Assembly (NCBI GenBank): GCA_046758445.1
Contig: JBHIAE010000013.1
Location: 5,252-69,251, forward strand
Source: Candidatus Thorarchaeota archaeon
GTDB taxonomy: Archaea > Asgardarchaeota > Thorarchaeia > Thorarchaeales > Thorarchaeaceae
DNA: 64,000 bases
Direction of reading: 5' to 3'
Position numbers and translations under genes: made by a program. Each line of letters opens with the position of its first letter. Within the stretch, counting starts at the first letter, position 1. Below, in pieces: positions 1,074 to 35,598 of the stretch. Below the pieces are notes generated by a model that searched no databases, was not told the DNA's origin, and worked only from the letters and a program-made list of their open reading frames with translations.

Positions 1074-1186
1074 GCGATGACTCGTCCAGTCCATTCTGCT
1101 TCGCCACCCATTTCATGGTCGTTCTGACCCGGAACACTTCGCAATACAGCGCGCTCGATGGCTAATCTAATATTGCTTCCGGCGGT

Positions 1187-2014: not shown

Positions 2015-2138
2015 GATATCGAGATACGACTCATCCTTGCTTTAAGTGAGCCCCTAAGCGGTTCAATTTGATGAGGTGTCAGAAACGCAAGCAATGGATT
2101 GGATTGTTGCTTGTGCTGATGCTTTGATACATTCGTGG

Positions 2139-2969: not shown

Positions 2970-3023
2970 TTGAGTTAAGCCCGGATTCCGAATAAAGCCT
3001 TTGTATCACACTGCGTTGAAGGG

Positions 3024-3512
3024 CTATTTCTTCGAACCTGCGATCTCGAGGATCTCCTGTAGTAGGTCATCCAAGACATTGTTCACTTCAGTCTTCTTGA
3101 ACTTATCAAGCGAATTCCCCAAGCATATGACACGAGTTGGTGTTCCCTCTCCGAGGTTGTTTCGTATCTCATTTCGGTACACCGTTTCAATCTGGGGGTC
3201 GGCCTCCCTAAGGACTATGATGACACCCTTCGCACCCTTGTATGTCAGGGAGAGAAGAATGTCCAGGGCTGCGTGTTCTGGTGACATGAAGAGAGTCCTA
3301 ACATCAGAGTCCGCAAGTTCAAGTTTCGTCGCGCCAATTCTGATGCCGTCCACTGCGACAACCTGCTGATTAAACACAGCCAACACTCTTCCCAAGAGCA
3401 CGTCTTCCGGGCCCACGACTGTAATCTTGAAGAGATACCGAGACTTCTGCTTGGGCTTCTTCTTGCGTTTGCACTTTGGTTTGGCTTTCTTTACTTTCTG
3501 CTTGGACGGCAT
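3024..3512 (-). CDS. Hypothetical protein with lysine-rich N-terminal tail; globular domain of unknown function
   Basis: 162-aa ORF; N-term MPSKQKVKKAKPKCKRKKKPKQK; no P-loop lysine found so not a canonical GTPase. Confidence 0.4.
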   Translation of the reverse strand: MPSKQKVKKAKPKCKRKKKPKQKSRYLFKITVVGPEDVLLGRVLAVFNQQVVAVDGIRIGATKLELADSDVRTLFMSPEHAALDILLSLTYKGAKGVIIVLREADPQIETVYRNEIRNNLGEGTPTRVICLGNSLDKFKKTEVNNVLDDLLQEILEIAGSKK

Positions 3513-3600
3513 GCTAGTCCCTCATTATTGCATCCCAATGCGGCGCGGCGTGACTTAAAAAAACTCACACTGTATGTAAACTACTCTTTAGCATAGATAT

Positions 3601-4032
3601 GTGTTGTGCGGAGGTGTTCAAAGGACAGCGTATGCACATAGATTATTAAGCGAAATCAGAGGGGGCCAAAATAGTGAGATAGAATTGGCCACAAGCAGCG
3701 AAGTATTTGAGGCCCTCAAACCTGTTATGGATCCAGAACACCCTGTAAGCATCACTGATCCAAGATTGGCAATTGTGAAAGAAGACTATATCAGAGTCAC
3801 CGGAAGTCTCATTCGAGTACTATTCAGACCAACAGTTGGGCATTGCCCAATGTCCGGTCTTATCGGAATTCTTATTCGCCATCGTCTTGAGCAGGTCTAC
3901 CCTGATGCTGAAGTGAAGGTCACTCTTGTACCGGGCTCCCATAATATGGAGAACGATGTCAACACGATGATAAGCGATAACGATAGGTACTCCAGCATAG
4001 TGGAACAGCTGCGAGAACGTGGAATGATCTGA
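3601..4032 (+). CDS. DUF59/MIP18-family Fe-S cluster assembly-associated protein
   Basis: Motif ...PTVGHCPMSG (T-x-x-x-C-P hallmark of DUF59) and DPEHPVSITD..IV start typical of family; true start may be downstream (e.g. ATG 3727) of the longest ORF. Confidence 0.55.
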   Translation: MLCGGVQRTAYAHRLLSEIRGGQNSEIELATSSEVFEALKPVMDPEHPVSITDPRLAIVKEDYIRVTGSLIRVLFRPTVGHCPMSGLIGILIRHRLEQVYPDAEVKVTLVPGSHNMENDVNTMISDNDRYSSIVEQLRERGMI

Positions 4033-4056
4033 ATCGACAAGCAGAGAGGTTGAAGC

Positions 4057-4437
4057 TTGAGAAGAGGAGAACAACTAGTCATCGCAGGTTTCATCACTGT
4101 CTTCATAGGTCTGGTCATTCTTGCATTCTCTTCTGTGAGTCCCGGGGAAGGATTCTTCTTCGTCTTTCCATTCTTCTTCTTCGCGGGTTCGAATGCTGCG
4201 ATAGGTCTGCTCCTCGTAGGTGCGATATTCGTCCTGATATTCTACTTCATACGAACGTTGCAGGTGTCGACTACGACAGAAGCACAGTGGAACACTCGTC
4301 AGGATAGACCTTCGTATGTGAGACTGACCAAAGTATGTGACTTCTGTGGAGAGCCTGTACCAGAGGGAGCATCATTCTGTCCTTCTTGCGGCAGTCCTGC
4401 TCAGCGTGAGTCAACCAGTGACTACTATTCACAGTAG
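4057..4437 (+). CDS. Small membrane protein with C-terminal zinc-ribbon
   Basis: Two hydrophobic segments then CDFCGEPVPEGASFCPSCG (CxxC...CxxC). Confidence 0.45.
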   Translation: MRRGEQLVIAGFITVFIGLVILAFSSVSPGEGFFFVFPFFFFAGSNAAIGLLLVGAIFVLIFYFIRTLQVSTTTEAQWNTRQDRPSYVRLTKVCDFCGEPVPEGASFCPSCGSPAQRESTSDYYSQ

Positions 4438-4451
4438 GCTGCAATTCTCTG

Positions 4452-4934
4452 TTGGAGGATGAGAAAGTGGCTTGGCAGATTCGTCCGGCTCAAGAAAGAG
4501 ACGTTGCCAAAATCAAAGCCATTGAGAACGGGAGTTTTCCGAGACCGTGGGATGAGAGTCTCTTTCGCATTATTGGTGCATGGAGAGGGCGTGTGCCGAT
4601 AGAACGTAACAGAGTCATCTTCATGTACGTGGCAGAAACTGATGAGGAACTTTTGGGATACGTCGTTTGGGAGGAAGATGTGACCGAGAGAATTGGACAT
4701 ATCCTCAACGTTGCTGTAAAGACAGAGAGAAGAAGAGAGGGACTAGGAACAGCACTAATCAATCATGCATTTGATACGCTACGCTCACACAGAATCAATT
4801 CATGTAGACTTGAAGTCCGTCCAAGCAACACTGCCGCACGTCGACTATACGAGCGTGCGGGCATGGCCGCACAGCATGAGGAGAGCGGATACTACGGAGA
4901 TGAAGACGCAATCGTCTACAGCATCAAACTATGA
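4452..4934 (+). CDS. GNAT N-acetyltransferase, RimI-like
   Basis: 160 aa; GNAT core motifs (LNVAVKTERRREGLGTALI; acetyl-CoA binding R-x-x-G-x-G/A); 3' end overlaps convergent gene by 6 nt. Confidence 0.7.
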   Translation: MEDEKVAWQIRPAQERDVAKIKAIENGSFPRPWDESLFRIIGAWRGRVPIERNRVIFMYVAETDEELLGYVVWEEDVTERIGHILNVAVKTERRREGLGTALINHAFDTLRSHRINSCRLEVRPSNTAARRLYERAGMAAQHEESGYYGDEDAIVYSIKL

Positions 4935-7900
4935 CCCGCTCTTGCGTCCACTAGTCAGTCGTGGTCCAAGGAAGTGTTGATACAACTGGAGGTATGAAGA
5001 CTCAGTTGACACAATCGCAAGGTCAGAGTCAGACTCCTCTGACCCTCCGATAAGAATCTCGCTGTCATCTTTGACCGCCAGTGTGGTTGGCGACGCTGTC
5101 TGCCAGATCCTCCAGCCCTTCAGGGCTTGGAGTTCAGGGCTGGCCTCCTCCATCTCAGGGATTATGAGTATCCTTCGCCTTGGAGCCTTTGACTTTGCTA
5201 GCTTCTTGAGATTAAGGCAGTCAAGACTTAGAACTGAAATGACCACTGATTCCTCTGCTCTGGCGACCATGTCCTGCATGTGAGCACAGATCTCACCACT
5301 TCCGGTGACATACCAAGTCCTATCACTAGGAACTGCCAACAACTCTTCTCCGGAGGCCTTGACAGCTTCTAGCGTTTCCATAGTTCGATTGGTGATTTCA
5401 GAAACCGCTTGAACAGCCTCATCAATCTGAGATTCGATAGTGCTCAGGGTCTTCTTCTGCTCTGTCCCCCACTGCCGCATTGTCTTGTCCACGTGTTCTG
5501 CAAGACTATTCAGCGCATCATTCCTTCCCTGTCGAAGAACTGACATTCCCTCTTTTGTATCTGTAGCGGCCTTGGAAGCACTAGCACCTATCTCGGAGTT
5601 CTTGGATGTGAGATCGCTTCTAACCTTCTCCACGAGTCGTGCTGTTTCGCCGCCAAGATGGGTCTTGAGATCTAGACCGATTGACTCGAGCTTTCTGGCC
5701 GAAAACTGGTTTGAAACGAGGACTCCTTGTTTGGCTTCAGAGAGAGCATTCTCAACGTGTTTAGTTGACAGGGTTGAGACTCGCTCGAGAAGTCCATGTG
5801 CTTCTTCCGCGACTGGTTGAGCCAACTCCGTGAACTTTGAGAACGAGGAGTCAATCGCCGCCGTGGCTCCATGACAGTATTCATCGACCTTCTCTGTGGC
5901 TTCGGCAACAGACGCGTCTATAATTCCCTTGAATGTCTCTGGCATGTCAGAGAATCCCTCTCCTACGTTTGTTAGTAGGCTCGTTGATTTCTCTCCGAAT
6001 TCGGTTGACAGTTTCCGAAGACTAGCCTCCGATTTCTTGAGTAGTGCTCGACTAAGGCCTTCGTAATCCTTGAGCCTCTTCTCGCCTCGTTCTCCAATCT
6101 TCGAGGCCACCTTGTCCGCGGCCTTCGTAATGCCACTTGCCAACGTGGCCATCTCTGCGTTCAATTTGGTCCCAAGCTGTTCCAACGAGGATGTAAGATT
6201 TCCTGCCGCTGTTTCTAGTCCTTCGGACGCTCCGATGAATGCCAACGCAACCTCGTTTCTTCGCTCCTCTATGGCCGCCACAGCCTGTTCTCTTGTGGTT
6301 CTTACTGCTTCCGACCTAGACGCGTCCTTCTTGGCAAGAGAAGTTTGAAACTTCTCAACTCTCTCATTGGAAGATTTCAAGAGCTTAGACGCAAGACCAT
6401 CCATCTTCTTGCTTGTACTTGCCAAAAGCTTCTCGCGTGATTCATCTTGTTCAGTGAAGTATGTGTCGATGACGGACTTTATCTTCGCAGTATTCTTCGA
6501 CATTGAGCTTTCAGCAGTGTCTGTGACACTTACCACTCTCTCCGCTATGCTGTCGCGTGCACTATTGACAGTAGATTTGAACTCCTTCGAAACTTGCACG
6601 ATGTTGTCCGCGAACTGGCGAATCGTCCCAGTTTCCATTTCCTTGAGAGCATCTTGTGTGCTTCTCACAGCATCTTCTATGCCACTGAGAGCATCGGCCA
6701 TAGACTTGGAGATCTCAGTCCGCTTCTCCACAGTAAGATCCTCGAGCGCCTTCCTCATGCCATCAACAGCTCCGACGAGCTCATCTACCTTGGCATTCAG
6801 CTCCACCGAGAACTCCTGTTGCAGTTTCTGAGAATCCTCTTGGAGAGATCCAATCTCTGACTTTAGCGACCCCTTGAACTCCGTGTGAACCGAGGCAATT
6901 AGATCGCGAGCTTCGGTGGTCTGACTAGAAAGGAATCCGTTGAAAGTGGCTTCAATGCTCTTCGTCAGATTGATGAACTGTCTGGTTATGTCCTCAACTT
7001 GAACATGGAACTCATTGCGTATGCCTTCCGAGTGTTCGTCAATTCGAGCTACCTGCTCTTCAATTGCCTGGTCGATCTCCTTCTGAACTCTGTTAGCATG
7101 TGAAGTCAAAGCACTCACACCTGACTCGAGTCGTTTGTCAACACGTTTGTTGAAACTGCCATACAGTGCCTTAGCCTCAGTTATCTGAGACTTTGTAGTT
7201 TCGGCGTAACCAGCTATGACTTCAGAAAGTCGTTCGCCGACATCAGCTTCGAACTCGTGCGTGATCTTCTTCACAGAAGTGAGAGCAGACTCCTGCTTCG
7301 TTGCAGAGGTTTTCATCACGGTGTTGTATGCCGACTTGAGTCTGCTGTTTATCGCCTCAGCGAGCGTGTCAATCTCTGAGGCTTCTGTGTCCAAAATCGC
7401 ACTTACTTCCTCCACTACCTGAGTGAGATTCTGGTTCATGGACGTGAGCGCACGCTTTGACCAGTTGTCGATATCGGTAATCGCCTGAAGATTGGCCTTG
7501 TCAAGCTTCTCCTCATGGGCATTTAGTTGCTTCTCCAGAAGCGCTAGAGTGGATTTTCGACAAGTTCCAAGGTTTGCCTCGAACTCGGTATGCACATTTG
7601 TCGCCATATCCTTCAAGGACTCATACTCATCGTCGAACACTTTCTGAGTCTTATCGATGAGACCGGAGGCTGCTGTCTTTACGTTTTCCAAGTACTTTGT
7701 TTCTGTAGACTGGATCTGGTCAAGTTGGGACTTCAGCGACTGAGTTGCCACGTCCATGAACGCCGCAACTTCAGCCTTCCATTCTTCAACATCTGCTCTC
7801 ACTGTTTCAGAGAGTTGAATTGCCTCCTCAATGCGAGTCTTGGCGAATTCTGCCTCTTCGCGAACTTGGTCTCGATTCCTTGATATCATCTCGTTCAGCG

Positions 7901-8840
7901 ACCCTTCGCCTGCCAGATAGCTAGAACTCAATTGTGCGTCAAGCTTAGAGAGCATCGCCTCAAGGTCCTCGCTGGCCGTGGTCAACGCCGCTATTGCACT
8001 GTCAGATGCACCTGTTGACTCTTCAGAGATCCTGCTACTCATCTGTTCCCCAGAAACCTGTACAGCTCTTCTTGATTCCTGTAGAGTGGAAGACAATGAG
8101 GCACTGAGGGATGCGACTAGAGCTGCAATCTTACTCCTTAGTCCATCCACGGCAGCTGCTGACGATTTGTGCTCAGCAGTCAGAACTCTCTTGAAACTCC
8201 TCGTAGTCTTATTGAGTTCGTGATCGAGAGCCTTCTGGCTCTTGTCAAGTTCTTGTTGGAGCGCGGTGAGTCGAGTGCCAAGGCCTTCATCAAGAGTCAC
8301 ATCTAGACCTGTCAACGCTTCTTCGATACTTTGTGCGAACTCGCTGAGGACCTGGGTCGCAAGAGTGGCGACGGTATCAATCTGGGATTGGACGGTGTCA
8401 ATCGTGTTGGACTCGTAGCTCTGTAAAGCAACTCTTCCATCATCGATGGTATTCTTATGGGACTCTAGAACCACCTCGATGTTTTGGTCCACCCTCTCGA
8501 ACTGGGCCTCGAACAACTTCCGAGTTTCCTCAGAGAATGAGCCCAGATCTCCTTTGATAGAAGAGAGCACATCATCTAATGCAAGAATCGTAGGAGCCAA
8601 TCGATAGACTTCTACCACGCCATCTACCTTTCGAATCAAGCCCTTCTTTTCCAGACGCTTGAGCGCACTTCCCACCTTCCTCCTTGACTCACCAGTGATC
8701 TCGACGATTCCCCCAGATGTAAGATTACCCCCAAGGAATATCGAGAGAACCACTTTGGCCTCAATATCCGTTATTCCAAGATTCCTCTTTAGTACTGGAA
8801 TACTCTCAACTACTGTACTTCCACTCAAATCCAATCCCAC
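4929..8840 (-). CDS. Giant (1303 aa) coiled-coil protein with N-terminal winged-helix (TrmB-like) DNA-binding domain and small C-terminal globular domain
   Basis: N-term ...DIEAKVVLSIFLGGNLTSGGIVEITGESRRKVGSALKRLEKKGLI (wHTH); ~1000 aa of heptad-like E/K/Q/L/A/S-rich sequence; no Walker A/B so not SMC/Rad50. Confidence 0.6.
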   Translation of the reverse strand: MGLDLSGSTVVESIPVLKRNLGITDIEAKVVLSIFLGGNLTSGGIVEITGESRRKVGSALKRLEKKGLIRKVDGVVEVYRLAPTILALDDVLSSIKGDLGSFSEETRKLFEAQFERVDQNIEVVLESHKNTIDDGRVALQSYESNTIDTVQSQIDTVATLATQVLSEFAQSIEEALTGLDVTLDEGLGTRLTALQQELDKSQKALDHELNKTTRSFKRVLTAEHKSSAAAVDGLRSKIAALVASLSASLSSTLQESRRAVQVSGEQMSSRISEESTGASDSAIAALTTASEDLEAMLSKLDAQLSSSYLAGEGSLNEMISRNRDQVREEAEFAKTRIEEAIQLSETVRADVEEWKAEVAAFMDVATQSLKSQLDQIQSTETKYLENVKTAASGLIDKTQKVFDDEYESLKDMATNVHTEFEANLGTCRKSTLALLEKQLNAHEEKLDKANLQAITDIDNWSKRALTSMNQNLTQVVEEVSAILDTEASEIDTLAEAINSRLKSAYNTVMKTSATKQESALTSVKKITHEFEADVGERLSEVIAGYAETTKSQITEAKALYGSFNKRVDKRLESGVSALTSHANRVQKEIDQAIEEQVARIDEHSEGIRNEFHVQVEDITRQFINLTKSIEATFNGFLSSQTTEARDLIASVHTEFKGSLKSEIGSLQEDSQKLQQEFSVELNAKVDELVGAVDGMRKALEDLTVEKRTEISKSMADALSGIEDAVRSTQDALKEMETGTIRQFADNIVQVSKEFKSTVNSARDSIAERVVSVTDTAESSMSKNTAKIKSVIDTYFTEQDESREKLLASTSKKMDGLASKLLKSSNERVEKFQTSLAKKDASRSEAVRTTREQAVAAIEERRNEVALAFIGASEGLETAAGNLTSSLEQLGTKLNAEMATLASGITKAADKVASKIGERGEKRLKDYEGLSRALLKKSEASLRKLSTEFGEKSTSLLTNVGEGFSDMPETFKGIIDASVAEATEKVDEYCHGATAAIDSSFSKFTELAQPVAEEAHGLLERVSTLSTKHVENALSEAKQGVLVSNQFSARKLESIGLDLKTHLGGETARLVEKVRSDLTSKNSEIGASASKAATDTKEGMSVLRQGRNDALNSLAEHVDKTMRQWGTEQKKTLSTIESQIDEAVQAVSEITNRTMETLEAVKASGEELLAVPSDRTWYVTGSGEICAHMQDMVARAEESVVISVLSLDCLNLKKLAKSKAPRRRILIIPEMEEASPELQALKGWRIWQTASPTTLAVKDDSEILIGGSEESDSDLAIVSTESSYLQLYQHFLGPRLTSGRKSGS

Positions 8841-8873
8841 CGTCTTACGTTGATGATGCTGTTCTCGAGCAAG

Positions 8874-9698
8874 CTATTTTGCTCTCTTGCGCCGTTTGAG
8901 TTTTGAAACTCTATCAAACAACACGAGCAGGTATTGTACCTCGAATGGATCTGCTGAACCATCCGAGATCACTTCGGCCTCAATATGCATCGAACTGTCC
9001 GTAGCATCCACAAAGAAGTCCTCATAGGCGCTGAGTGCGTCATCCTCCAGAAGAGGCTTGGTCTTTGTAGACTTGGCACTAGCGAGGTCCATCGTAAGAA
9101 GCCACCAGGTGTCAGTTGTATCTGATGCCGAGGCATCTATGTCATAGTGTTTGGAGAGCAGTTCTACATACAACTTGAAGATCTGGAAGTCTTCCACTTC
9201 ATGGTGCCGTGGATTGATGATTACGATGCCACGAGCAAAGTCGAACTGAAACAATAGGTCATCTCCTGCGACCAACTTGACATTGCCCTCCTGAGCTGTT
9301 GTGGTCTTGTTCCAAATCTTGCCAAATCTGGAAACGAAGTGCTTCAACGAGCTGACTCTGAGAGTTGACAAGAAGTCCTTGGTCTGGAGTCGACGATCAA
9401 CCATCCCTCTGCCCTTACGTTCCAGTACGAAACGTTTGACTTGCTCAAGATATTGACTATAGCAGAAGCTAGGAAGATTCTCTGGATCTATACCCAATTC
9501 AATCAGCATGTTGAGGAAGTTGCGGTCTTTGCACGCTGGACGCACCGTGCAGCCCAGACGGTTCTCTTCACACTCTTTGCACTTCTCCTCATGTAGTTCT
9601 ATGAACTCCTTGGCAAGCTGCTTATCCGACACCTTGTCGAGCAGCGCAATTCTCGATGCAAAACCGGTGCTACGTTGTTTCGAACTCATTACTTCCAT
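8874..9698 (-). CDS. Hypothetical protein with Cys4 cluster (CKECEENRLGCTVRPAC)
   Basis: 274-aa ORF, co-oriented 34 nt upstream of giant coiled-coil gene; C-terminal KRRKRAK basic tail. Confidence 0.4.
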   Translation of the reverse strand: MEVMSSKQRSTGFASRIALLDKVSDKQLAKEFIELHEEKCKECEENRLGCTVRPACKDRNFLNMLIELGIDPENLPSFCYSQYLEQVKRFVLERKGRGMVDRRLQTKDFLSTLRVSSLKHFVSRFGKIWNKTTTAQEGNVKLVAGDDLLFQFDFARGIVIINPRHHEVEDFQIFKLYVELLSKHYDIDASASDTTDTWWLLTMDLASAKSTKTKPLLEDDALSAYEDFFVDATDSSMHIEAEVISDGSADPFEVQYLLVLFDRVSKLKRRKRAK

Positions 9699-9885
9699 CC
9701 ACTCACTGAGTACTCTATGGATACAGATAGACCTAGAGCAGTTCGGTCAATACTCTCGCCACAAGAATAGCGGCGAAAGTGTTTCAAGTTGCGCAATTGC
9801 CTTTCAGTTTGATAAGTTTATGGCCCCTGTCACCGCTTCTTCTCGACCAACCCACTGCTGAAACCTAGATTCCACCCCATCAAGG

Positions 9886-10911
9886 TCAGCTGCCCTTGGC
9901 AATCTCCTTTAGCTTGGATGTCCAAGCACGGATTTCAGTATTCAATACGGCAATGTCGTTCTCATTGAGGGTGGCCGTAGGCGGATAGGACTTCAATTCT
10001 CTGGCTTTCTTTCCGAACTGGAAGAGCACAGGAGTATGTCCCTTGATCATCAGTGTCAACTGGTCGCGAACCTCTTCTAAGGCTCCAGCCATTTCCTTGG
10101 CTTCAGTCTGTGGAGTTACCATCTCAAGAAGATCAGCCATTACATCATCAATGGCTGATGGCGTAACCTTCTTTGGTTTCATCTTCACTTTGTCAGCGGG
10201 TTCCTTCTCTTTGGGCGCCTTCTTCGCAGGCTTCTTAGCTGCCTTGGCTGCGGGCTCCGAGGCTGCTGAGGCTTGAGCCATGCTTGCTGCTTCTTCCAAG
10301 GCCTCAGTCATCTTCTCAAGGGACAGGTTGTACTTGCGTTCGAGGTCATCTAGCTGCCGCACAATGATTCCCACAATCTCTTTTGTTTCTGACAAGGAGT
10401 TAGACAAGTCTTGGATATTGTCTTCTATTGCCGAAACACCCGCCACGTACTGCTGGAGATCGTCAATCTTCTTGTCTACGCCGTCAAGCGAACCGGCTCC
10501 CTTGACCTCGTTGCCGATATCCACAACGTTGACAAGAATATCATCCATCTTCTTGAAGAGAACCTCCATCTCCTTGGAATCTCGAATCTCAATCACGGTC
10601 GAATCAATCCCCTTGATAGAATCAGCCAGTCCATCCACCTTCTTGCCGATGCTCTCGGAGGTCTTCGTTTCGCCCAACTTCGCGAGTGTAGTGTTGAGTT
10701 CTTGGACTGATTTGAGAAGATCCTCAATCTTGGACACTGGAGTGACTTGGGACTGTACATCCTTGATCACTTCTTCTATTCCTTCTACTTTCTTCTCGAG
10801 ATCCGTAGCAGCAATGAGTCCTTCTACCTCTTTCCTAATCTTAGTGGTTTCCTCACCAATCTTGTCAATCTTCTTTTCGAAACTCTGAAGATATTCCTTC
10901 TCGCTCGTCAT
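9886..10911 (-). CDS. Coiled-coil protein with internal lysine/alanine-rich (histone-H1-like) linker
   Basis: 341 aa; N-terminal ~220 aa heptad-rich; ...AAKAAKKPAKKAPKEKEPADKVKMKPKK...; C-terminal ~90 aa globular. Confidence 0.4.
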   Translation of the reverse strand: MTSEKEYLQSFEKKIDKIGEETTKIRKEVEGLIAATDLEKKVEGIEEVIKDVQSQVTPVSKIEDLLKSVQELNTTLAKLGETKTSESIGKKVDGLADSIKGIDSTVIEIRDSKEMEVLFKKMDDILVNVVDIGNEVKGAGSLDGVDKKIDDLQQYVAGVSAIEDNIQDLSNSLSETKEIVGIIVRQLDDLERKYNLSLEKMTEALEEAASMAQASAASEPAAKAAKKPAKKAPKEKEPADKVKMKPKKVTPSAIDDVMADLLEMVTPQTEAKEMAGALEEVRDQLTLMIKGHTPVLFQFGKKARELKSYPPTATLNENDIAVLNTEIRAWTSKLKEIAKGS

Positions 10912-11032
10912 GGCATGCCCAACCTATCAAATCGGAGGCCGTGTCCAGCATAATCTCTGCGTATTTAGATTTTCGGGATATCTAAATGATTCGTGGGGGT
11001 CTATCTCTCAAACCACCTGACAACTTCCGCCG

Positions 11033-11884
11033 CTATATCTTACTGGCACGGATGAAATCTAATCCGCACTCTTCGAGGATTGGGAAGATACGGGCCTTGT
11101 TCTCCGCATTAGTTCCCTTCCAGTCTATGATAGCTCGAGAAACCTTCTCCTTGCTCCGTGATATCATATGCTGGATCACATCAACATCAATCTCGTTCAG
11201 GGCGTACTTGGGAGCGATGTGACCGATTCTTACATCTTTCTCTAGAACTAGCTTGTTGAACTTGCTAGCATAGTGCGTGCCACCAAAACCAATAGAGGAT
11301 TCTGACTCAATTGGCGCTCGAATGCATTCCATGACTGCTGCCGCAACAGACCTTGCTCCCTCTTCATGTTGCCAGTAGGCTTCGCCACTGCCTAGTTCGA
11401 CAAAGAGTAGAGGTGTATTCATGGTTGTAGGGCCGTGATGGGTCACTTCAAGCGTGATATCGAACTCCTCCAGCCGGCGCCTGGCTCTCTCCTTCTGTAG
11501 GCTCCGTAAGGCCACGGACATAAGACTTGCTATGGACACAGACAGGCTCCTTGGGGCACCTCCATAGCTAGCATCATCTCCGAAGTTGCCTGTACTATGA
11601 ACGAGCAGGGCAGGCCTGCCCGACTGTGCTCTGTGGCGAGAGCAGAAGATGAACACCTCTGCTTCGAAATGTTGCTCTAGATGATCTGCGAATATCATGT
11701 CGCGCTCTGTTGTGATCAGCAAAGCTGAACTTCCAAGTGAGTAGACTGGATTTCCCTCGAATGTTTCACCGGTTTCTTCGAAGCCATGTTCATCGCGTAG
11801 TAAGTTGCTTATGGTTTGACTCGCTATGTCTTGAGTCGAGGAAACAAGCACCCTCATTTGGATCATCCGTTTCTCAATCGACAA
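11033..11884 (-). CDS. dtdA: D-aminoacyl-tRNA deacylase, archaeal type (DtdA/DTD2)
   Basis: 283 aa; strong match by recollection to Pyrococcus DtdA (..FEGNPVY..; SRHRAQSGRPALLVHSTGNFG; EVTHHGPT; DWKGT). Confidence 0.8.
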   Translation of the reverse strand: MSIEKRMIQMRVLVSSTQDIASQTISNLLRDEHGFEETGETFEGNPVYSLGSSALLITTERDMIFADHLEQHFEAEVFIFCSRHRAQSGRPALLVHSTGNFGDDASYGGAPRSLSVSIASLMSVALRSLQKERARRRLEEFDITLEVTHHGPTTMNTPLLFVELGSGEAYWQHEEGARSVAAAVMECIRAPIESESSIGFGGTHYASKFNKLVLEKDVRIGHIAPKYALNEIDVDVIQHMISRSKEKVSRAIIDWKGTNAENKARIFPILEECGLDFIRASKI

Positions 11885-13118
11885 TACACTTCTCTAGCAG
11901 GGGCTCCAATGATATCTCAAGCTCGAGTGTCACCTTCTCCTCAAAGGACTCCAGAATCTCTGACTCAATTCGGTCCTTATGGTCCCTAACTCGAGCTAGC
12001 TCACGTTCAATATCGTCCCTGATTCGAAGCATATCGCTGCGATGATAGTCAAGATTCTTCTGGGCCTCTTCAAGCTCGCCCTGGAGCCGATCGCTCTCCG
12101 CGTATACATCAGAACCTGCGTATTTCCGGCGTTTCTCCTCCAGCTCTTTAGCTTTCTGCTGCAGCTCCTGGAGAGAACCACTGCTGATAGCGTTCACCTC
12201 TTCAATTGCACGTCTTCCTAGTCGGTCTTTTAGAGAGAGCTTGCCTGTTTCAATTGCTTCCCTCAGTCCCCCAAGTCCTTCAAGTAGTCCCGGATGTCCG
12301 TCGGGCTCCTCGACGATTGCCGTATAGGGGTCCTCGAAGTAATCAAGGAGAGCTCTTTGGCCAGCGGCACCCACTCGCACACCGGTGTCACGTTGGAGGA
12401 ACTTCTTCACCTGCTTCTTCAGAGGATTCATCTTCATCCTTAGAACACCAGCCAAACGATCCGCCTCTTCGTCAAGCGTGAGTAGCCCTGCCACGTCGGA
12501 CGTTTCTGCGAATGTATTGTAGGCGGTCTTCGCCGAATCAAAATCAACTTTGGCCGTGTCAATCTTCATCCTCGTCTGGCGAATCTGGTCTTCAAATAGC
12601 TCTTCGCTGTGACCCAGGTCTTGCAAGGTCTGAATTCTGGTTCCAATCCTCTCCAGGTCTTTCAGCCAGTTGAACTCAAAAAGGAGCTTTTGAATGCGGT
12701 TCATCTCATTCATGAGCTCTTTCATGGCAGAATCAATCTGCTTGATCGTCGTCTTGTGCCTCTTGTCCATCCGCCTGATCCAGCGGGCGCCAGCACCCCA
12801 AAGCTCCTGAATGAAAGCCCTGATCTCCTCCTGAAGATCCTCCATACTCTGGTGGGTCACCTCTTTGTCGACATAGAAGTCGGCAGTGATGTCCTCGACC
12901 TTCATGGCGAATCTGGTGGCAATGCCCATGGAATCTGGTTCATCCTCGCCAGTCTCCCTAAGGTTTCTTGAGAGATCCTTTATGTCTTTGAGAGTCCTCT
13001 CTACAACCTTGTAGCTCCTCTCAGCCTTCTTCTTGAATTCCTTAGATCGATTTGAGAGGCGTTTTCGATACCACTTTTGAAGCTGGTCAACAGTTAGAGT
13101 CGTCATCTGGGGTGCCAC
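11874..13118 (-). CDS. Coiled-coil protein, function unknown
   Basis: 414 aa, mostly predicted alpha-helical/coiled-coil; stop overlaps dtdA start by 11 nt (operonic). Confidence 0.4.
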   Translation of the reverse strand: MAPQMTTLTVDQLQKWYRKRLSNRSKEFKKKAERSYKVVERTLKDIKDLSRNLRETGEDEPDSMGIATRFAMKVEDITADFYVDKEVTHQSMEDLQEEIRAFIQELWGAGARWIRRMDKRHKTTIKQIDSAMKELMNEMNRIQKLLFEFNWLKDLERIGTRIQTLQDLGHSEELFEDQIRQTRMKIDTAKVDFDSAKTAYNTFAETSDVAGLLTLDEEADRLAGVLRMKMNPLKKQVKKFLQRDTGVRVGAAGQRALLDYFEDPYTAIVEEPDGHPGLLEGLGGLREAIETGKLSLKDRLGRRAIEEVNAISSGSLQELQQKAKELEEKRRKYAGSDVYAESDRLQGELEEAQKNLDYHRSDMLRIRDDIERELARVRDHKDRIESEILESFEEKVTLELEISLEPLLEKCIVD

Positions 13119-13319
13119 CTAGTCGCGTGACGAGATTTCCATCCTACTTTTCAACTTTATGAACTGTGAACCACATTATTGCTCATGGAAAACAAGCTTT
13201 TAACCATGCTGACATTTATGGGAAACCTCACGGGCACGAGGCCGGTAATGTCCAAGGATAATCATCCCCTGAAAAGAGGGAGGTGTGAGGAGGAAACTCA
13301 ACTGAATCCCCCTCATCTC

Positions 13320-13760
13320 CTACTCGTCATACTTCCAGCATAGGAAATCGGCTAGCATCAAACCAGCCGATGTGAGCTTCGCAAGCTGTCCCTTGTTTTC
13401 CATGTCACCACCAGATAGCAAACCCATGTCCATCAAAGAACGGAGGTTCCACTTTGTTGTACTATAAGGTACTGATGTTCTTCGTGACACACGGTCTGCC
13501 AGCGCCGTAACGGTCAGGTCGTTGTACTTCAGCAGTTGCGCACTCACTCTCAATACAAGCTTCTGGTTCTTGCTCATTCTTGTGTCTGCCAGTGTGAAGA
13601 ATGATGCGGCAAGACTGTCAAAAGAAGACTCGGCGAAAGGTTCGTGACTCTGACATGCCTGGTTGGCACTAGAGAATACATTCACCTCGTGAAGTAATTT
13701 GGTACTCACCTTTTGCCTTTGCGACCCGACGTCGATGGGCGGTGGCCTCTGTTTCAACAC
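13320..13760 (-). CDS. Small winged-helix (MarR/ArsR-like) protein
   Basis: C-terminal half ...LTVTALADRVSRRTSVPYSTTKWNLRSLMDMGLL... HTH-like; start uncertain (internal Met possible). Confidence 0.35.
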   Translation of the reverse strand: MLKQRPPPIDVGSQRQKVSTKLLHEVNVFSSANQACQSHEPFAESSFDSLAASFFTLADTRMSKNQKLVLRVSAQLLKYNDLTVTALADRVSRRTSVPYSTTKWNLRSLMDMGLLSGGDMENKGQLAKLTSAGLMLADFLCWKYDE

Positions 13761-13852
13761 CCATTTCGCTTTTCACCTCTTTCTTGATTGGGTCATTTCA
13801 CGGCTAATCAAGACAGCATTTAAGCGTTTGCAGAAGGCTTGCTGTGCGGCAT

Positions 13853-14374
13853 TCACCTCATATCTTCAGGAATCTGAAGTCCCATTGAGTCTAGCTTGCC
13901 AAACCCTTGGCTGTAAAGACTCATGTTGTGCCGGATCTCTTCCTCAGTTTCTGTTACAGTAGAAAGGTATGAGTTTATCTCATCCAGTCCACTCTCTTTG
14001 TACTCTTCCATCATTGAATAGACAGTATCACTCATGCGGAGCATTAGGTCTTGTATGACAGTGCTGAGATCGATCATAGACTGGACTACCTCAACTGCGT
14101 CATCATCAGGCATGTAGGGAAGAAAGTCCTCAAGTGCGACACCAGCCTCTCTGCATCGGTCGACCCGACCAGGAATCACTTCATCATACATTGAATGCAT
14201 CCATCCCAGACGCTCCTCGTGAGTCAGAGTTCCAAGGTTCTCGAGAGAGAAGTAACCAGTCCACGGGCCAAACTCAGAGCTCTCATAGGAGATCCAGTTG
14301 TCAAAAGCACCCAGAACACGATGCCAACCCTCTACGGTCTTCGACATCAATCCATCCCGAGATTCTGTCATCAT
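13853..14374 (-). CDS. Hypothetical protein
   Basis: 173-aa ORF with coding periodicity, no recognised motifs. Confidence 0.35.
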   Translation of the reverse strand: MMTESRDGLMSKTVEGWHRVLGAFDNWISYESSEFGPWTGYFSLENLGTLTHEERLGWMHSMYDEVIPGRVDRCREAGVALEDFLPYMPDDDAVEVVQSMIDLSTVIQDLMLRMSDTVYSMMEEYKESGLDEINSYLSTVTETEEEIRHNMSLYSQGFGKLDSMGLQIPEDMR

Positions 14375-14412
14375 CGGTTGTTATAAACTAGCGTGAAATA
14401 CTGAGTGACAGA

Positions 14413-15084
14413 ATGACAGACAATCGCCTCTCGATTCTCATTGGAATACTAAGGAACTCAAATGAGTTAGACAAGATTCTCGCTAGTGACGAAGTCACGA
14501 CAGATCTTCTAGAACAGGCGGGAGCCACACAAGTAGATGAGGAATCCTGGACACTTGACAGCGCAGCAAGAGTATCTCTGGCCATTCAAGCCAACCTGTT
14601 GGGTGCTGAGCTAGAGGAGATTGTGAACCTACTCTCGTGGAAAGACTTTGAGGGGCTAGTGGCAAGAATCCTGACAGAAAACGACTACCGTTGTCTTGAG
14701 AACTTCAGGAAACGTGGAACGAAAGAAGCAAGAGGCATGGAGATTGATGTCATTGGAGTCAAGGGCACGAGCGTTATTTCAGTTGATGCCAAGATGTGGG
14801 GAGTCAGGTCAGGCAAGTCAACTGCCTTGAAGTCTGCAGCAGAGAAGCAGGAAGAGAGAACAGTTCGCCTATGTGATCAGATGCACATGCTGGCGGAGAA
14901 ACTGGGTGGTATCCCTAGCGGAGTATACTCACTCACGCCAGTCTTGGTTACTTGGATGGTTGAAGAGGTTGTCTTCCATGATGGAGTTCCCGTTGTCCCC
15001 GTCTTCAAGCTTAACACATTCTTGCAGGATATGCCAATCTACCAGGACATGATCGCGTCTTCCGACTGTGTCTTTCATAGCTAG
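14413..15084 (+). CDS. PD-(D/E)xK nuclease-fold protein (Mrr/Hjc-like restriction-endonuclease-like domain)
   Basis: ...GMEIDVIGVKGTSVISVDAKMW... matches D...(E/D)xK arrangement of the fold; N-terminal helical region. Confidence 0.4.
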   Translation: MTDNRLSILIGILRNSNELDKILASDEVTTDLLEQAGATQVDEESWTLDSAARVSLAIQANLLGAELEEIVNLLSWKDFEGLVARILTENDYRCLENFRKRGTKEARGMEIDVIGVKGTSVISVDAKMWGVRSGKSTALKSAAEKQEERTVRLCDQMHMLAEKLGGIPSGVYSLTPVLVTWMVEEVVFHDGVPVVPVFKLNTFLQDMPIYQDMIASSDCVFHS

Positions 15085-15109
15085 TGTTTGACCTTCCTGC
15101 GCAAGCAAA

Positions 15110-15922
15110 TCATGATCTGCCTTCAACAGTCCAAAGAGATTCATGAATGACGTCTGAATATGTAACTCTCACGCGCTGAGTCGCCAGAACCCGGAAGTTC
15201 CTGTAGAGCCGATCAAGCTCGGTTAGACTGTATGGTGCTGTCCAATTGATACCTAGCCGCTCCCTAAAGACCGAACTTGGCACACCAATGTCACATACAT
15301 ATAGGTCTCCTAGACTTTCCGGCAATGTTTCAAGAAGACCAGACTTCACGAAGGCAATCGTCAATGTGGCGAGGGGGTTGACTCTTCCGACATTCTCGCC
15401 TGTGGTTACGTCCAATCCCGAGGGAGCATCCAAGGATAGTACTCTCTCTGACTCCTTAAGAGCGGCAAATACATCATTCGCCAGCGGGTCCTCACGTCTA
15501 GTAAATCCATACCCAATGAAGGCATCTAAAACCAGAGTCTTGTTGTCTGAGGGGGCAGTCAGGGGACCTTCAAGAATCTCGGAACCAACCGATTTGAGCC
15601 TCTCCAATTGAGCTCGGGGTATAGAGCGGAGCGACCTGATGCCTTTGGGAACCACGACTTTGACGTTGTAGCCCCAACCGAAGAGTCGTCGTGCAGCAAC
15701 TAGTCCACCACCTCCGTTATTTCCCGATCCCACAACAATCAGAAACTGAGTGGATGAATCCCCTGACAACTCTACTGCTAGCCGTGCAAAGCTGGAACCA
15801 GCATTCTCCATCATCAGCTCAACAGGAATGCTCAGCTCCTCCATCATAATGCGGTCGACTTCAATCATCTGGTCCCGTGATATGCCTGGCAGACCCATAC
15901 CAAATGGATAGACGCCAATCAC
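15110..15922 (-). CDS. nnrE: NAD(P)H-hydrate epimerase (YjeF N-terminal domain)
   Basis: ...FLIVVGSGNNGGGGLVAARRL.GWGYNVKVVVP... canonical YjeF-N glycine-rich motif. Confidence 0.7.
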   Translation of the reverse strand: MIGVYPFGMGLPGISRDQMIEVDRIMMEELSIPVELMMENAGSSFARLAVELSGDSSTQFLIVVGSGNNGGGGLVAARRLFGWGYNVKVVVPKGIRSLRSIPRAQLERLKSVGSEILEGPLTAPSDNKTLVLDAFIGYGFTRREDPLANDVFAALKESERVLSLDAPSGLDVTTGENVGRVNPLATLTIAFVKSGLLETLPESLGDLYVCDIGVPSSVFRERLGINWTAPYSLTELDRLYRNFRVLATQRVRVTYSDVIHESLWTVEGRS

Positions 15923-16038
15923 TTAGCCCTTGCCAATCATTCTAGCTGCTAAGGAGGTCATCAGAGCCTCCTGAGGTTCATCTTTTTATCTGGTCAATAC
16001 ACTTCATCAGACAGATTCCGAAGCGGGAGATATGATCA

Positions 16039-16932
16039 ATGGCTCTGTTCGGTGTAGTCTATCACGAAAACGTAAACAATTGGGCTACTGCCAGTCTCAT
16101 TGAGGCCATAGAGGCAAAGGGACACACCGCCAAGCCCTTCCGCCTAGCAGATGTGGCAGCCGAACTTCCTCACAGATTCACGCATCTAGATGAGGAAGAC
16201 GTTTCAGGAATGGACGGGGTCATGGTCCGCACAATCGGTTTCGGAAATAGCGACCAGATAACCTTTCGAATCAGTCTTTTGGAGCATTTCGAGGATGCCG
16301 GTATTTACGTGATGAACCCAGCCTATTCATTCAGAAGAGCCAAGGACAAATACGCGACCTTGACTGCACTGCATAAGGCGGGAATCAGAGTCCCACGGAC
16401 GTACATTGGCGAGAACCTCGAGGCTGCAATCAATTTCGCAGATGAGGTCGGAGATGTCATAATCAAGCCTCTCATTGGTGCCCGTGGCCTTGGCGCAATT
16501 AGAGCCCAACATCCCGAACTCAACTACCGGGCCATGAAATTCATTCACCAGTTGGGTCAAGTCTTATACGTTCAAGAAGTGATACCTAAGCCAGATCGTG
16601 ATATTAGAGCATTCGTTATCGGCGACCAGTTGGTGGGGGCAATGTACAGATACCTCCCCGAGGAAGACAAGGATGAGTGGCGGACCAACGTTTATGCCGG
16701 GGGTCGTGCTGAGCTGGCGAGCCTTGATGATGAATATTCGGAGTGTGCAATCAAGACTGCCGCCACCCTCAATCTTGACTATACTGGAGTAGATATCATT
16801 GAGTCACCTGAGGGCCCCTATGTGATTGAGGCTAACGCAGCTCCTTCTTGGAGCGCCCTCTCACGTGTTACAGAGAAGAACATTGCAGGAATGATAATCG
16901 ACAGGCTGATCCACCAATCCGGTGTGAAATGA
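16039..16932 (+). CDS. RimK-family ATP-grasp alpha-L-glutamate ligase
   Basis: 297 aa; ATP-grasp layout (KP.IGARGLG..; ...VDIIES..GPYVIEANAAPSW) typical of RimK/LysX/MptN/CofF; exact substrate not assignable. Confidence 0.75.
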   Translation: MALFGVVYHENVNNWATASLIEAIEAKGHTAKPFRLADVAAELPHRFTHLDEEDVSGMDGVMVRTIGFGNSDQITFRISLLEHFEDAGIYVMNPAYSFRRAKDKYATLTALHKAGIRVPRTYIGENLEAAINFADEVGDVIIKPLIGARGLGAIRAQHPELNYRAMKFIHQLGQVLYVQEVIPKPDRDIRAFVIGDQLVGAMYRYLPEEDKDEWRTNVYAGGRAELASLDDEYSECAIKTAATLNLDYTGVDIIESPEGPYVIEANAAPSWSALSRVTEKNIAGMIIDRLIHQSGVK

Positions 16933-32174: not shown

Positions 32175-32181
32175 GAGGTGG

Positions 32182-33642: not shown

Positions 33643-33654
33643 AAGAGAAGCAGG

Positions 33655-35493: not shown

Positions 35494-35598
35494 TTGGAGA
35501 GATTTCGAGTATAAGGACGTGACTCAGGCTCAGATTACACTATAATCACTGCAATCCCAGAAACCATGTGCTCAAGCTTACAATGCCCTAGTGCAAGC

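Follow-up and report, generated by a model that had tools for sequence, protein, structure and literature searches.

TrmBL2 of the Thermococcales is a chromatin protein of the TrmB family, and an 11-residue period is typical of amphipathic helices that bind lipid surfaces. Within Thorarchaeia, a 'Vps5-BAR fused to Vps28' has been described as a candidate eukaryotic signature protein (Eme et al. 2023, Nature; PMC10307638). Thorarchaeota also possess a separate Vps28, the protein that Hatano et al. 2022 (PMC9192718) employed in two-hybrid assays. The gene array analyzed here, G-(F)-E-dtdA-C-B-A, is located on the minus strand of a Thorarchaeota (Asgard) contig, in a stretch of 64,000 nucleotides that was analyzed as a whole and is referred to as the window. 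A preliminary description of this DNA had read it as Asgard, and as a cluster of long coiled-coil proteins with dtdA embedded, fitting cytoskeletal or membrane-remodelling repertoires. The origin is indeed a Thorarchaeota organism, and the minus-strand open reading frames listed at that time (8874-9698, 9886-10911, 11033-11884 and 11874-13118) are all present. The features of the array are as follows:

13853..14374, minus strand: G, acidic protein of 173 aa (pI 4.2), first gene of the conserved array
13320..13760, minus strand: F, small basic protein (pI 9.2), winged helix-turn-helix-like
11874..13106, minus strand: E, conserved 410-aa protein, all-alpha by prediction, of an Asgard-wide family
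12540..12929, minus strand: weak Vps28-like region of E (aa 60-189), sub-threshold
12162..12434, minus strand: most conserved core of the E family (aa 225-315), with invariant K235 and near-invariant K231 and P260
11858..11873, minus strand: spacer between E and dtdA, 16 nt, GAAACGGATGATCCAA, with the Shine-Dalgarno-like GGATGATCC
11033..11857, minus strand: dtdA, archaeal DTD2-type D-aminoacyl-tRNA deacylase, conserved MRVLV start (ATG 11866 alternative)
10474..10911, minus strand: N-terminal repeat rod of C (aa 1-146), KK[IV]DxL repeats about 27-30 aa apart
10327..10473, minus strand: central motif of C (aa 147-195), near-invariant EIVGIIVRQLDD[IL]ERKYN
10162..10269, minus strand: Lys/Pro/Ala/Glu-rich linker of C (the 'AKKPAKK' stretch), conserved in composition and not in sequence within Thorarchaeota
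9889..10161, minus strand: C-terminal domain of C (aa 251-341), near-invariant, containing HTPVLFQFGK.ARELKSYPPTATLNENDIA
8874..9689, minus strand: B, 271 aa, Cys-rich N-terminal part and predicted alpha/beta C-terminal domain
9462..9581, minus strand: five invariant cysteines of B, Cx2Cx6Cx5Cx22C (alignment A3)
4929..8840, minus strand: A, 1303 aa, N-terminal TrmB winged helix-turn-helix, long periodic helix and TrmB-C-like end

The five genes E (410 aa), dtdA, C (341 aa), B (271 aa) and A (1303 aa) are collinear and co-oriented wherever a Thorarchaeota species genome contains all of them (55 of 55), the synteny counts covering only Thorarchaeota genomes with a contig long enough to give gene position. 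Counted gene by gene around E, dtdA keeps its place in 66/66, C in 63/63, B in 57/58 and A in 53/55. G precedes E in 53/55 Thorarchaeota loci (58-97% identity) and F is present in 56/57, while an opposite-strand gene of 241 aa lies between F and E in 49/57 genomes. Loss of synteny and low-complexity artefacts had both been named as grounds for doubting the cluster. The array was found in all sufficiently long Thorarchaeota contigs and in a distant relative, genome L079, and homologues number at least 289 for E, 296 for C and 155 for B; all four of the noted open reading frames are real genes with many homologues, none being a low-complexity artefact.

Conservation of this kind could have a simple cause. 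The flanking proteasome alpha, RimK and GNAT genes are about equally syntenic within Thorarchaeota and, together with the H nuclease-like gene, stay in place in most of the 69 genomes, so that gene order conserved within the class alone does not demonstrate shared function. Phylogenetic inertia, in which functionally unrelated genes sit on a slowly rearranging Thorarchaeota stretch and dtdA accompanies E for convenience, as in the mixed 'superoperons' of archaea, would account for this and for the wholly different neighbours of E homologues in other Asgard lineages. It also accommodates the opposite-strand gene that parts F from E in most genomes and the spacers of 121-213 nt ahead of C, B and E in the window, which leave space for separate promoters. 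We nevertheless consider inertia rather unlikely, because in L079 the order and orientation G-E-dtdA-C-B-A survive at 17-43% protein identity although the flanks are rearranged (F undetected, W absent, X inverted). There the intergenic gaps are 61, 10, 31, 83 and -8 nt, a packing that resembles a single operon. The E-dtdA distance, within about 40 nt in 67/67 genomes, and the joint loss of B and A in genome L062 argue against inertia as well. In L079 the protein E is 36% identical to that of the window, B is 34% identical with its Cys motif kept, and G is 35% identical and located 61 nt upstream of E.

Searches at the sensitivity used recovered C, B, A and G from Thorarchaeota and a single deep relative only, and outside the Thorarchaeota lineage none of the four had a homologue near E. 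E is the sole array member with homologues across Asgard archaea. Its family comprises 138 representatives, and those with names are Asgard bar one (Thor-, Odin-, Hel-, Hod-, Loki- and Ranarchaeia, plus one Bathyarchaeota cluster). The reading that we tentatively favour, while giving it somewhat less than an even chance as a whole, is a vertically inherited, Thorarchaeota-lineage-specific gene array that is not an ESCRT, BAR or cytoskeletal cluster, in which E would have a link to translation and C, B and A would form a DNA-associated rod system added to it.

The enzyme dtdA is itself ordinary, a full-length DTD2-type DtdA (PF04414) of about 275 aa; what sets it apart is only its fixed place right behind E across Thorarchaeota. 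Its previous identification was confirmed by Pfam (tRNA_deacylase PF04414, 221 bits against a cut-off of 33.6) and NCBIfam (NF003072, 246 bits), the latter alignment beginning at residue 10 of the open reading frame. Homologues and the gene caller place the start at ATG 11857 or 11866. A start codon (TTG/ATG/GTG) stands at the MRVLV position in 64/67 Thorarchaeota genomes, and in most genomes dtdA starts 12-20 nt past the E stop. The 11-nt overlap between the two genes that had been described results from taking the longest open reading frame, from TTG 11884, a codon that is not conserved and is missing in a 92%-identical relative (L003); the conserved start codon follows the E stop at a distance of 16 nt. 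A 5-mer of SD type precedes dtdA in 26 of the 67 genomes (39%) versus 6.5% in controls, and a G-rich box at -11/-10 is conserved over the 67 loci. E and dtdA are, to judge by these sequences, an operon-type pair with dtdA behind its own Shine-Dalgarno-like box. Coupling of the two stands in the form of a tight pairing seen everywhere, by way of a short SD-bearing spacer and not of an overlap.

The start of E at ATG 13106 (410 aa) is backed by homologues and the gene caller. Mean column identity in its alignment (A1) is 76%, with the motifs ELWGAGARWIRRMDK, LRMKLNPLKKQVKKF, DTGVR and SLEPLL, while the conserved core of the family was taken from family-wide alignments of 54 sequences, at 16-22% identity outside Thorarchaeota. 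The AF2 model (pLDDT 85.5) contains 14 helices, and periodicity analysis gave a power of 91 versus 47+-12 in shuffles with no dominant period. E is therefore predicted to be a multi-helix protein and not a periodic coiled coil or coiled-coil filament protein, and the long coiled coil formerly assigned to 11874-13118 does not hold for E. No fold match was obtained when the pLDDT-85 model was searched against the whole PDB with Foldseek. A Foldseek comparison had been proposed against ESCRT, crescentin, intermediate-filament and SMC-type folds, with BAR folds also considered here; for E and B none was found, the best values for either protein being an E-value of ~0.06 and TM <=0.31.

Whether E nonetheless belongs with membrane-remodelling proteins depends on its resemblance to Vps28 and BAR domains. 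Pfam VPS28 matches E of the window at 18.1 bits, under the cut-off of 24.5, and a Thorarchaeota E profile finds the Vps28 C-terminal domain (2j9w_A, E=0.008) as its best PDB sequence match. Among 40 Thorarchaeota homologues of E a VPS28 match occurs in 11 and a BAR match in 9, all below the Pfam gathering score (best BAR score 27.8 bits against 28.5), and in one sub-clade sub-threshold VPS28 (aa 5-192) and BAR (aa 227-375) matches span the whole protein. Because it comes from the same lineage and has a Vps28-like N-terminal half and BAR-like C-terminal half in Thorarchaeota homologues, E is probably the protein published as the 'Vps28 + Vps5-BAR' fusion. It shares lineage and apparent architecture with that fusion, but its matches are sub-threshold, limited to 9-11 of the 40 homologues, lost in the wider Asgard family and not backed by Foldseek against PDB.

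Compared with ESCRT-I Vps28 (PF03997; C-terminal four-helix bundle, 2j9w), E is likewise all-helical and at aa 109-190 has weak profile similarity to the C-terminal domain, yet it is twice as long, under the family cut-off and outside an ESCRT gene cluster. With BAR proteins (PF03114; SNX-BAR Vps5) it has in common long helices in the C-terminal half and the conserved lysines K231 and K235; however, E of the window has no BAR match in Pfam and no BAR structure is among the significant fold matches. Among BAR-type structures, the F-BAR 2efl comes highest in the Foldseek search, at rank 46 (E=3.5, TM 0.13).

A remodelling or cytoskeletal module, as put forward in the preliminary description, would cast E as a membrane adaptor resembling both ESCRT-I (Vps28) and BAR proteins, with filament or scaffold roles for C and A. 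The matches above and the published fusion speak for it, as do the oligosaccharyltransferase subunits near E homologues in some lineages and the central helix of A, which exceeds the Pfam Apolipoprotein threshold with the 11-residue period of the lipid-binding type. We regard this module as decidedly improbable. The Vps28 match disappears with the family-wide profile (among 54 E-family members VPS28 is matched by 2, and BAR is not among the matched families), Foldseek of E against the whole PDB returned no Vps28 or BAR structure, and heptad periodicity is missing from both C and E. Furthermore, the lineage contexts examined contain no ESCRT gene in the vicinity of E, nor is there one elsewhere in the window; no ESCRT or retromer gene is beside E, and the E family is also present in a Bathyarchaeota-labelled MAG. 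The Vps28/BAR similarity of E is sub-threshold, confined to Thorarchaeota and without backing from structure search or gene context.

In the array as we tentatively read it, C, B and A would have been added within this lineage and would probably act as a rod system anchored on DNA, a view that draws on one winged-helix domain and sequence periodicity. It would consist of A with its TrmB head and long helix, B as a tightly linked partner with five cysteines, and C with its rod, central motif and C-terminal domain. Co-expression with E-dtdA would apply at least to the deep-branching relative with its compact array. A matches Pfam TrmB at 33.7 bits (cut-off 25.6) and has a weak Regulator_TrmB match at its C-terminus, which aligns it with the TrmB-family winged-helix regulators through an above-threshold N-terminal helix domain and a weak TrmB-C-like end. 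Between these ends, about 1050 residues form an uninterrupted, nearly proline-free helix with an 11-residue period (3.66, power 750 versus 46+-13 in shuffles), an arrangement that to our knowledge is absent from characterised TrmB proteins. The centre of A also scores 102 bits with Pfam Apolipoprotein (cut-off 90), and with its sharp 3.66 period resembles apolipoprotein, perilipin and LEA-type 11-residue repeats; the likeness is one of repeat type and not shown homology, and A differs from them in its DNA-binding-type ends.

A begins 33 nt past B in the window, and the two overlap by 8 nt in L079. The start of B at ATG 9689 follows homologues and the gene caller (alignment A3). Its AF2 model has a pLDDT of 80 and a pTM of 0.74, with the C-terminal domain above 90, and neither fold nor sequence of B found a match in PDB. 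The Cys4 protein of the earlier annotation carries five invariant cysteines, which probably constitute a metal site, Zn or Fe-S being the candidate types.

Only the N-terminal ~175 residues of C warrant the former label of a long coiled coil, and the hydrophobic period of the rod is about 3.36 (power 244 in the shuffle test), not the heptad 3.5. Repeat copy number in the rod differs between species, PDB sequence searches gave generic coiled-coil matches only, and the rod is missing from the L079 homologue. The central motif, with 14 of 18 positions invariant, is kept there as EIREIVAIIVQQMDSLERKYN, and the C-terminal domain, which has no Pfam or PDB sequence match, is recognizable. The linker carries AAKAAKKPAKKAPKEKEP; the histone H1-like AKKPAKK character once ascribed to it is present in the window and is not conserved in L079, where the linker is non-basic, acidic/polar and Ser/Thr/Glu-rich.

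These proteins could alternatively be a nucleoid or chromatin module in which A, C and F bind and bridge or tether DNA with B as a metal-dependent partner, E, G and dtdA being co-expressed passengers. The above-threshold TrmB winged helix of A, its two TrmB-like ends with continuous helix between them, the Lys/Pro/Ala-rich linker of C, the winged-helix-like F and the close linkage and joint loss of B and A would all suit such a module. It is quite improbable, however, given that the basic linker becomes acidic and polar in L079, that F (whose TK0271-family and TrmB HTH matches are all sub-threshold) was not detected in that genome, that neither an SMC-like ATPase nor a known chromatin fold turned up, and that the conserved position of E-dtdA is left unexplained. 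G gave no Pfam or NCBIfam match.

Returning to the favoured reading, E may be a soluble scaffold or adaptor acting with the translation apparatus, as its neighbours in other lineages suggest. In Odin the gene lies between deoxyhypusine synthase (DS) and Mtq2 with gaps of 15 and 9 nt, and the same trio occurs in Hod. Dph5 adjoins the E homologue in L080, aIF2-gamma in the Bathyarchaeota-labelled MAG and a RimI-like GNAT in Ranarchaeia. A translation-related gene (dtdA, DS and Mtq2, Dph5, aIF2-gamma or RimI-like acetyltransferase) is directly beside the E family in six of ten lineage contexts, a count of gene neighbours read after the fact, with fewer than ten contexts independent because a single ancestral arrangement is common to Odin and Hod, and Thorarchaeota and L079 have the same array. 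dtdA would then be the Thorarchaeota form of this association and not a housekeeping enzyme that has strayed into a set of structural genes, and the translation-related neighbours outside Thorarchaeota serve as a lead on E. Some neighbourhoods point in another direction: Ribophorin I adjoins the E homologue in L076, Odin and Hod have OST3 and STT3 nearby, and Ranarchaeia a glycosyltransferase and a signal peptidase. DS and AMMECR1 recur close to E in several Asgard lineages, which could reflect inherited gene order and not function.

Seven minus-strand genes at 4929-14374, labelled in the order G to A, make up an array that includes the genes presented in the preliminary description as a cluster of long coiled-coil proteins with dtdA embedded. 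That observation is real, but its description proved partly wrong.

Genes of the array, in order of transcription
13853-14374, minus strand: G, 173 aa, acidic
13320-13760, minus strand: F, 146 aa, basic
11874-13106, minus strand: E, 410 aa, helical protein
11033-11857, minus strand: dtdA, D-aminoacyl-tRNA deacylase, about 275 aa
9886-10911, minus strand: C, 341 aa
8874-9689, minus strand: B, 271 aa
4929-8840, minus strand: A, the giant protein, 1303 aa

The shorter starts of E and B used here are backed by the gene caller and by homologue alignments. For each of E, C and B, NCBI has an identical protein annotated as a hypothetical protein of Candidatus Thorarchaeota archaeon. Database searches returned at least 289 homologues of E, at least 296 of C and at least 155 of B, and dtdA is full-length and of DTD2 type, so that the open reading frames are real genes and the coiled-coil frames cannot be dismissed as low-complexity artefacts. 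The best 120 homologues of E are 61-100% identical to it and about 410 aa long, and an alignment of 40 Thorarchaeota sequences has a mean column identity of 76% with long invariant motifs. Judged by sequence, G, C, B and the giant A, of TrmB type, are new families, with conserved domains that no Pfam family covers. Scanning all 64 kb of the window turned up neither a tRNA gene nor an Rfam family at gathering score.

A synteny scan with the E alignment, taking one genome per GTDB species, yielded 69 loci, whose titles are nearly all Thorarchaeota with a few Promethearchaeota, Hermodarchaeota or 'uncultured archaeon'. Among loci whose contig extends far enough, E is followed by dtdA in 66 of 66, by C in 63 of 63, by B in 57 of 58 and by A in 53 of 55, and the 55 loci with all five genes invariably keep them collinear and on one strand. 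Median identities across the loci are 62% for E and for dtdA, 48% for C and for B, 38% for A and 66% for G. In locus L062 (12171-14064) B and A have been lost together, while its close relative L061 retains both; in L006 (13315-15960) B is cut short where it meets 2-oxoacid:ferredoxin oxidoreductase genes, which could reflect rearrangement or misassembly. An opposite-strand gene of 241 aa and no known family lies between F and E in 49 of 57 Thorarchaeota genomes (for example L010, 9055-9780, minus strand), which suggests that E starts its own unit. The clade of the present genome lacks this gene and has a 213-nt spacer in its place (13107-13319). Upstream of the array and divergent from G is H (14413-15084, plus strand; 223 aa), which gives weak matches to Mrr_cat/NERD nuclease domains; of 51 Thorarchaeota loci, 49 have it at this place.

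Mixed operons with conserved gene order are common among archaea. The flanking proteasome alpha, RimK and GNAT genes are about as syntenic as the genes of the array, so that a gene order shared throughout the class is no distinguishing mark of the array. The best evidence for some constraint on the core gene order comes instead from a distant relative, locus L079, on the contig of assembly GCA_053994715.1 that encodes P0243, an E-family representative 36% identical to E. There the array, at 104-8212, reads G' (35% identical), E', dtdA (43%), C' (25%), B' (34%), A' and an opposite-strand GNAT gene, and the spacings along the series G' to A' are 61, 10, 31, 83 and -8 nt. A' matches A at 17.5% identity over the full length (E=2e-57), and F was not detected in L079. 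The flanks of L079 differ from those in the window: they have no Fe-S assembly gene, and X lies in the opposite orientation. X itself (3024-3512, minus strand) encodes 162 aa of no known family, with an N-terminal tail, MPSKQKVKKAKPKCKRKKKPKQK, that is very rich in Lys, and is conserved in Thorarchaeota; the inverted counterpart in L079 is 39% identical.

Conserved order across related genomes, proposed as the check on the cluster, is thus borne out by all 55 five-gene Thorarchaeota loci and extends to L079. The further suggestion that the set could form one functional module gains partial support from the compact L079 array. The best-supported reading is of an array belonging to the Thorarchaeota lineage and made of two parts, the apparent operon pair E-dtdA and the lineage-specific additions C, B, A and G. 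Because C, B, G and A are present across the Thorarchaeota genomes examined, they are probably of importance to these archaea.

The product of dtdA is an ordinary full-length DTD2-type deacylase: its match to PF04414 spans profile positions 4-204 of 205 and scores 221 bits, where 33.6 would suffice. Against NCBIfam NF003072 it scores 246 bits, slightly below the strict equivalog cut-off of 272, in an alignment that begins at residue 10 of the longer reading frame. That frame is the basis for the earlier proposal that dtdA is coupled to E through an 11-nt overlap, which requires a TTG start at 11884. The codon is not conserved among 67 Thorarchaeota genomes, and L003, whose E is 92% identical, has no corresponding TTG start. 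A start codon at the position of the MRVLV motif is present in 64 of the 67 (TTG in 44, ATG in 13, GTG in 7), lying 12-20 nt past the E stop in most genomes and overlapping by 4 nt or more in a minority. The coupling of the two genes is therefore conserved but the overlap is not. In the window the E-dtdA spacer is GAAACGGATGATCCAA. A Shine-Dalgarno 5-mer occurs upstream of the dtdA start in 39% of loci compared with 6.5% of control windows, and the G-rich box ahead of the start reaches a G frequency of 0.75 at -11/-10. With the short spacer, the Shine-Dalgarno-like box and the conserved start, the two genes resemble an operon pair, dtdA being served by a putative ribosome-binding site of its own.

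An exhaustive profile search extended the E family to 138 representatives of about 400-430 aa that match end to end. The members that carry a name belong to Odin-, Hel-, Hod-, Loki- and Ranarchaeia, with one cluster from Bathyarchaeota. Homologues beyond Thorarchaeota are 16-22% identical to E; only K235 is invariant, with K231 and P260 near-invariant. Ten lineage contexts were compiled as loci from exact-protein look-ups, with Thorarchaeota and L079 counted as two.

Neighbours of E homologues in other lineages
L071 (9038-11986), Odinarchaeia: deoxyhypusine synthase (DS)-E-Mtq2, gaps of 15 and 9 nt; RadA and OST3 downstream
L073 (6939-9974), Hodarchaeota: DS-E-Mtq2 trio as in Odinarchaeia; OST3 and STT3 close by
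L072, Helarchaeota, and L075, Lokiarchaeota: conserved uncharacterised 317-318-aa gene upstream of E; DS 3-4 kb off
L074 (8001-10503), labelled Bathyarchaeota: aIF2-gamma, convergent with the E homologue
L076: Ribophorin I upstream of the E homologue
L078, Ranarchaeia: RimI-like GNAT upstream, glycosyltransferase downstream, signal peptidase and an OST3-like gene close by
L080 (6973-9209): diphthine synthase Dph5, divergent from the E homologue
L077, labelled Promethearchaeota: E homologue beside genes of no known family

A translation-related gene directly adjoins E in 6 of the 10 contexts, the functions being factor modification, aIF2-gamma, a RimI-like acetyltransferase and aminoacyl-tRNA proofreading. 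By a rough estimate this exceeds chance (about 0.003 if some 13% of contexts were expected to show it), although the comparison is post hoc and the contexts are not all independent. Homologues of G, C, B and A were not found near E in the loci outside the Thorarchaeota lineage. For E, the strongest lead is a role associated with translation. The full proposition would make the family an overlooked component of the translation apparatus across Asgard archaea, its gene wired in different lineages to those for DS (acting on aIF5A), Mtq2 (aRF1), Dph5 (aEF2) or aIF2-gamma, and in Thorarchaeota to that for DtdA; we regard it as a long shot. If it were true, the conserved coupling to dtdA would reflect function and not accident. 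The genes of 317-318 aa immediately upstream of the E homologues in L072 (7001-7954) and L075 (5029-5985) are 35% identical to each other. N-glycosylation and secretion form a second recurring theme near E homologues (Ribophorin I, OST3/OST6, STT3, signal peptidase, glycosyltransferase), seen in L076 at 4190-7254, L078 at 2996-7727, L071 at 14225-14659 and L073 at 11171-16838.

The AlphaFold2 model of E, built on the 40-sequence alignment (pLDDT 85.5, pTM 0.52), contains 14 helices and short N- and C-terminal strands, which we infer from the model to pair together. The hydrophobic periodicity of E is weak (power 91 against 47±12 in shuffled sequences; 750 for A and 244 for C), and E is accordingly a helical multi-domain protein and not a long periodic coiled coil. 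Foldseek comparison of the model with the whole PDB gave nothing significant, the best E-value being 0.06 and TM scores at most 0.31.

Membership of E in the Vps28 or BAR families would agree with the membrane-remodelling role suggested for the cluster. The published description of Thorarchaeia includes a 'Vps5-BAR fused to Vps28' (Eme et al. 2023, PMC10307638), and in one Thorarchaeota sub-clade sub-threshold matches to VPS28 (aa 5-192) and BAR (aa 227-375) tile E in a manner that probably corresponds to this protein. The PDB sequence best matched by the Thorarchaeota profile of E is likewise the Vps28 C-terminal domain (E=0.008), and Pfam VPS28 (PF03997) matches 11 of the 40 Thorarchaeota homologues at E<0.1. 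E itself scores 18.1 bits against a gathering score of 24.5, however, and 22.1 is the highest value among the Thorarchaeota homologues that were scored one by one. Across the family the signal is lost: VPS28 matches 2 of 54 members, and no Vps28 chain is among the 60 PDB matches listed for the family-wide profile, whose divergent alignment may dilute a real signal. For BAR (PF03114), which matches 9 of the 40 Thorarchaeota homologues, the E of the window gave no match, the best homologue scored 27.8 bits against 28.5, and the domain is not among the Pfam families listed for the 54-member set. The sole BAR-type PDB match to the E model is the F-BAR structure 2efl (rank 46, E=3.5, TM 0.13), which gives no support for the antiparallel three-helix bundle of solved BAR structures.

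A canonical Asgard Vps28 gene is linked to other ESCRT-I/II/III genes. ESCRT genes were absent from the window reading frames checked and from the E-family loci of other lineages examined. Given the sub-threshold scores, the loss of signal family-wide and these neighbourhoods, membership of E in the Vps28 or BAR family is not supported, and the Foldseek check proposed earlier gave no significant match to an ESCRT fold. Lists of Asgard 'eukaryotic signature proteins' shape models of eukaryote origin, and the Thorarchaeota 'Vps28 + BAR' protein is a cited hint of ESCRT-linked membrane bending. That the similarity is weak, confined to one clade and lacking in structural or gene-context support lowers one piece of the Asgard trafficking argument; were the translation reading of E correct, the published call would have to count as a false positive. 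A new lead is that E belongs to a family spread across Asgard archaea, with genes that lie repeatedly beside those for translation-factor-modifying enzymes.

Other resemblances of E were considered and set aside. Chains 8ohd_B and 8qfc_C of the ribosome-bound UFM1 E3 ligase complex (E 0.3-0.6, TM 0.21-0.26) were judged chance matches, since neither is listed among the PDB matches of the Thorarchaeota or family-wide profile and there are no UFL1 or DDRGK Pfam matches; nor was any tie found between E and the published Asgard origin of UFL1/DDRGK1 or the Vps28/Vps23-adaptin-UFL1 fusions. DUF2935 matches 18 of the 40 E homologues weakly and PDB entry 3d19 is among the weak fold matches, yet a hemerythrin-like metal site is expected to carry a conserved His cluster, and H355 is the only invariant histidine of E.

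The designation of C and E as long coiled coils also fails where a canonical heptad is meant, as neither has a dominant 3.5 period. Such dominance, as in an intermediate-filament- or crescentin-like rod, was found in none of C, E and A: over residues 1-200 of C the power is 8 at 3.5 and peaks with 244 at 3.36, and the values at 3.5 for E and A are 0 and 1.3, the peak of A lying at 3.66. The N-terminal rod of C consists of KK[IV]DxL repeats with 3-3-4 hydrophobic spacing and a period of about 3.36 (aa 1-175), shorter than the heptad, and its repeat copy number differs between species. Beyond the rod, C has a central motif, EIVGIIVRQLDD[IL]ERKYN, that is near-invariant; a linker rich in Lys, Pro and Ala, whose composition is conserved among Thorarchaeota; and a near-invariant C-terminal domain of 90 aa with no Pfam or PDB relative. 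The profile of C gave only generic coiled-coil matches among PDB sequences. The histone-H1-like AKKPAKK linker noted earlier is indeed present in C, but C' of L079 keeps the central motif and C-terminal domain while lacking the rod and having a non-basic Ser/Thr/Glu-rich segment in place of the linker. The H1-like linker is thus not the conserved feature of C.

The Cys4 designation of B stands with a small amendment, the invariant cysteine ligands numbering five instead of four in 34 sequences and in L079. B is a putative metal-binding protein with a confidently modelled alpha/beta domain (AlphaFold2). No fold or sequence relative was found in the PDB, where the profile search returned nothing; B and E are thus both without a solved-fold match.

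In A, an N-terminal TrmB winged helix-turn-helix (PF01978, 33.7 bits against 25.6, residues 17-83) and a final 129 residues that weakly match the TrmB C-terminal domain (PF11495, E=0.072) enclose about 1050 residues that keep up a hydrophobic periodicity of 11 residues (3.66) without a break and include just two prolines. This helical region exceeds the Pfam Apolipoprotein threshold. By analogy with SMC or Rad50 proteins, the helix could fold back so that both ends form one head.

Elsewhere in the window, at 29325-38705 and 62150-63979, lie large sensor-like proteins (dCache + TPR + VWA, 949 aa; dCache + HAMP; TPR + CN-hydrolase, 882 aa), with no ESCRT genes among the reading frames checked there. 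A leucine-rich-repeat protein is encoded at the window end.
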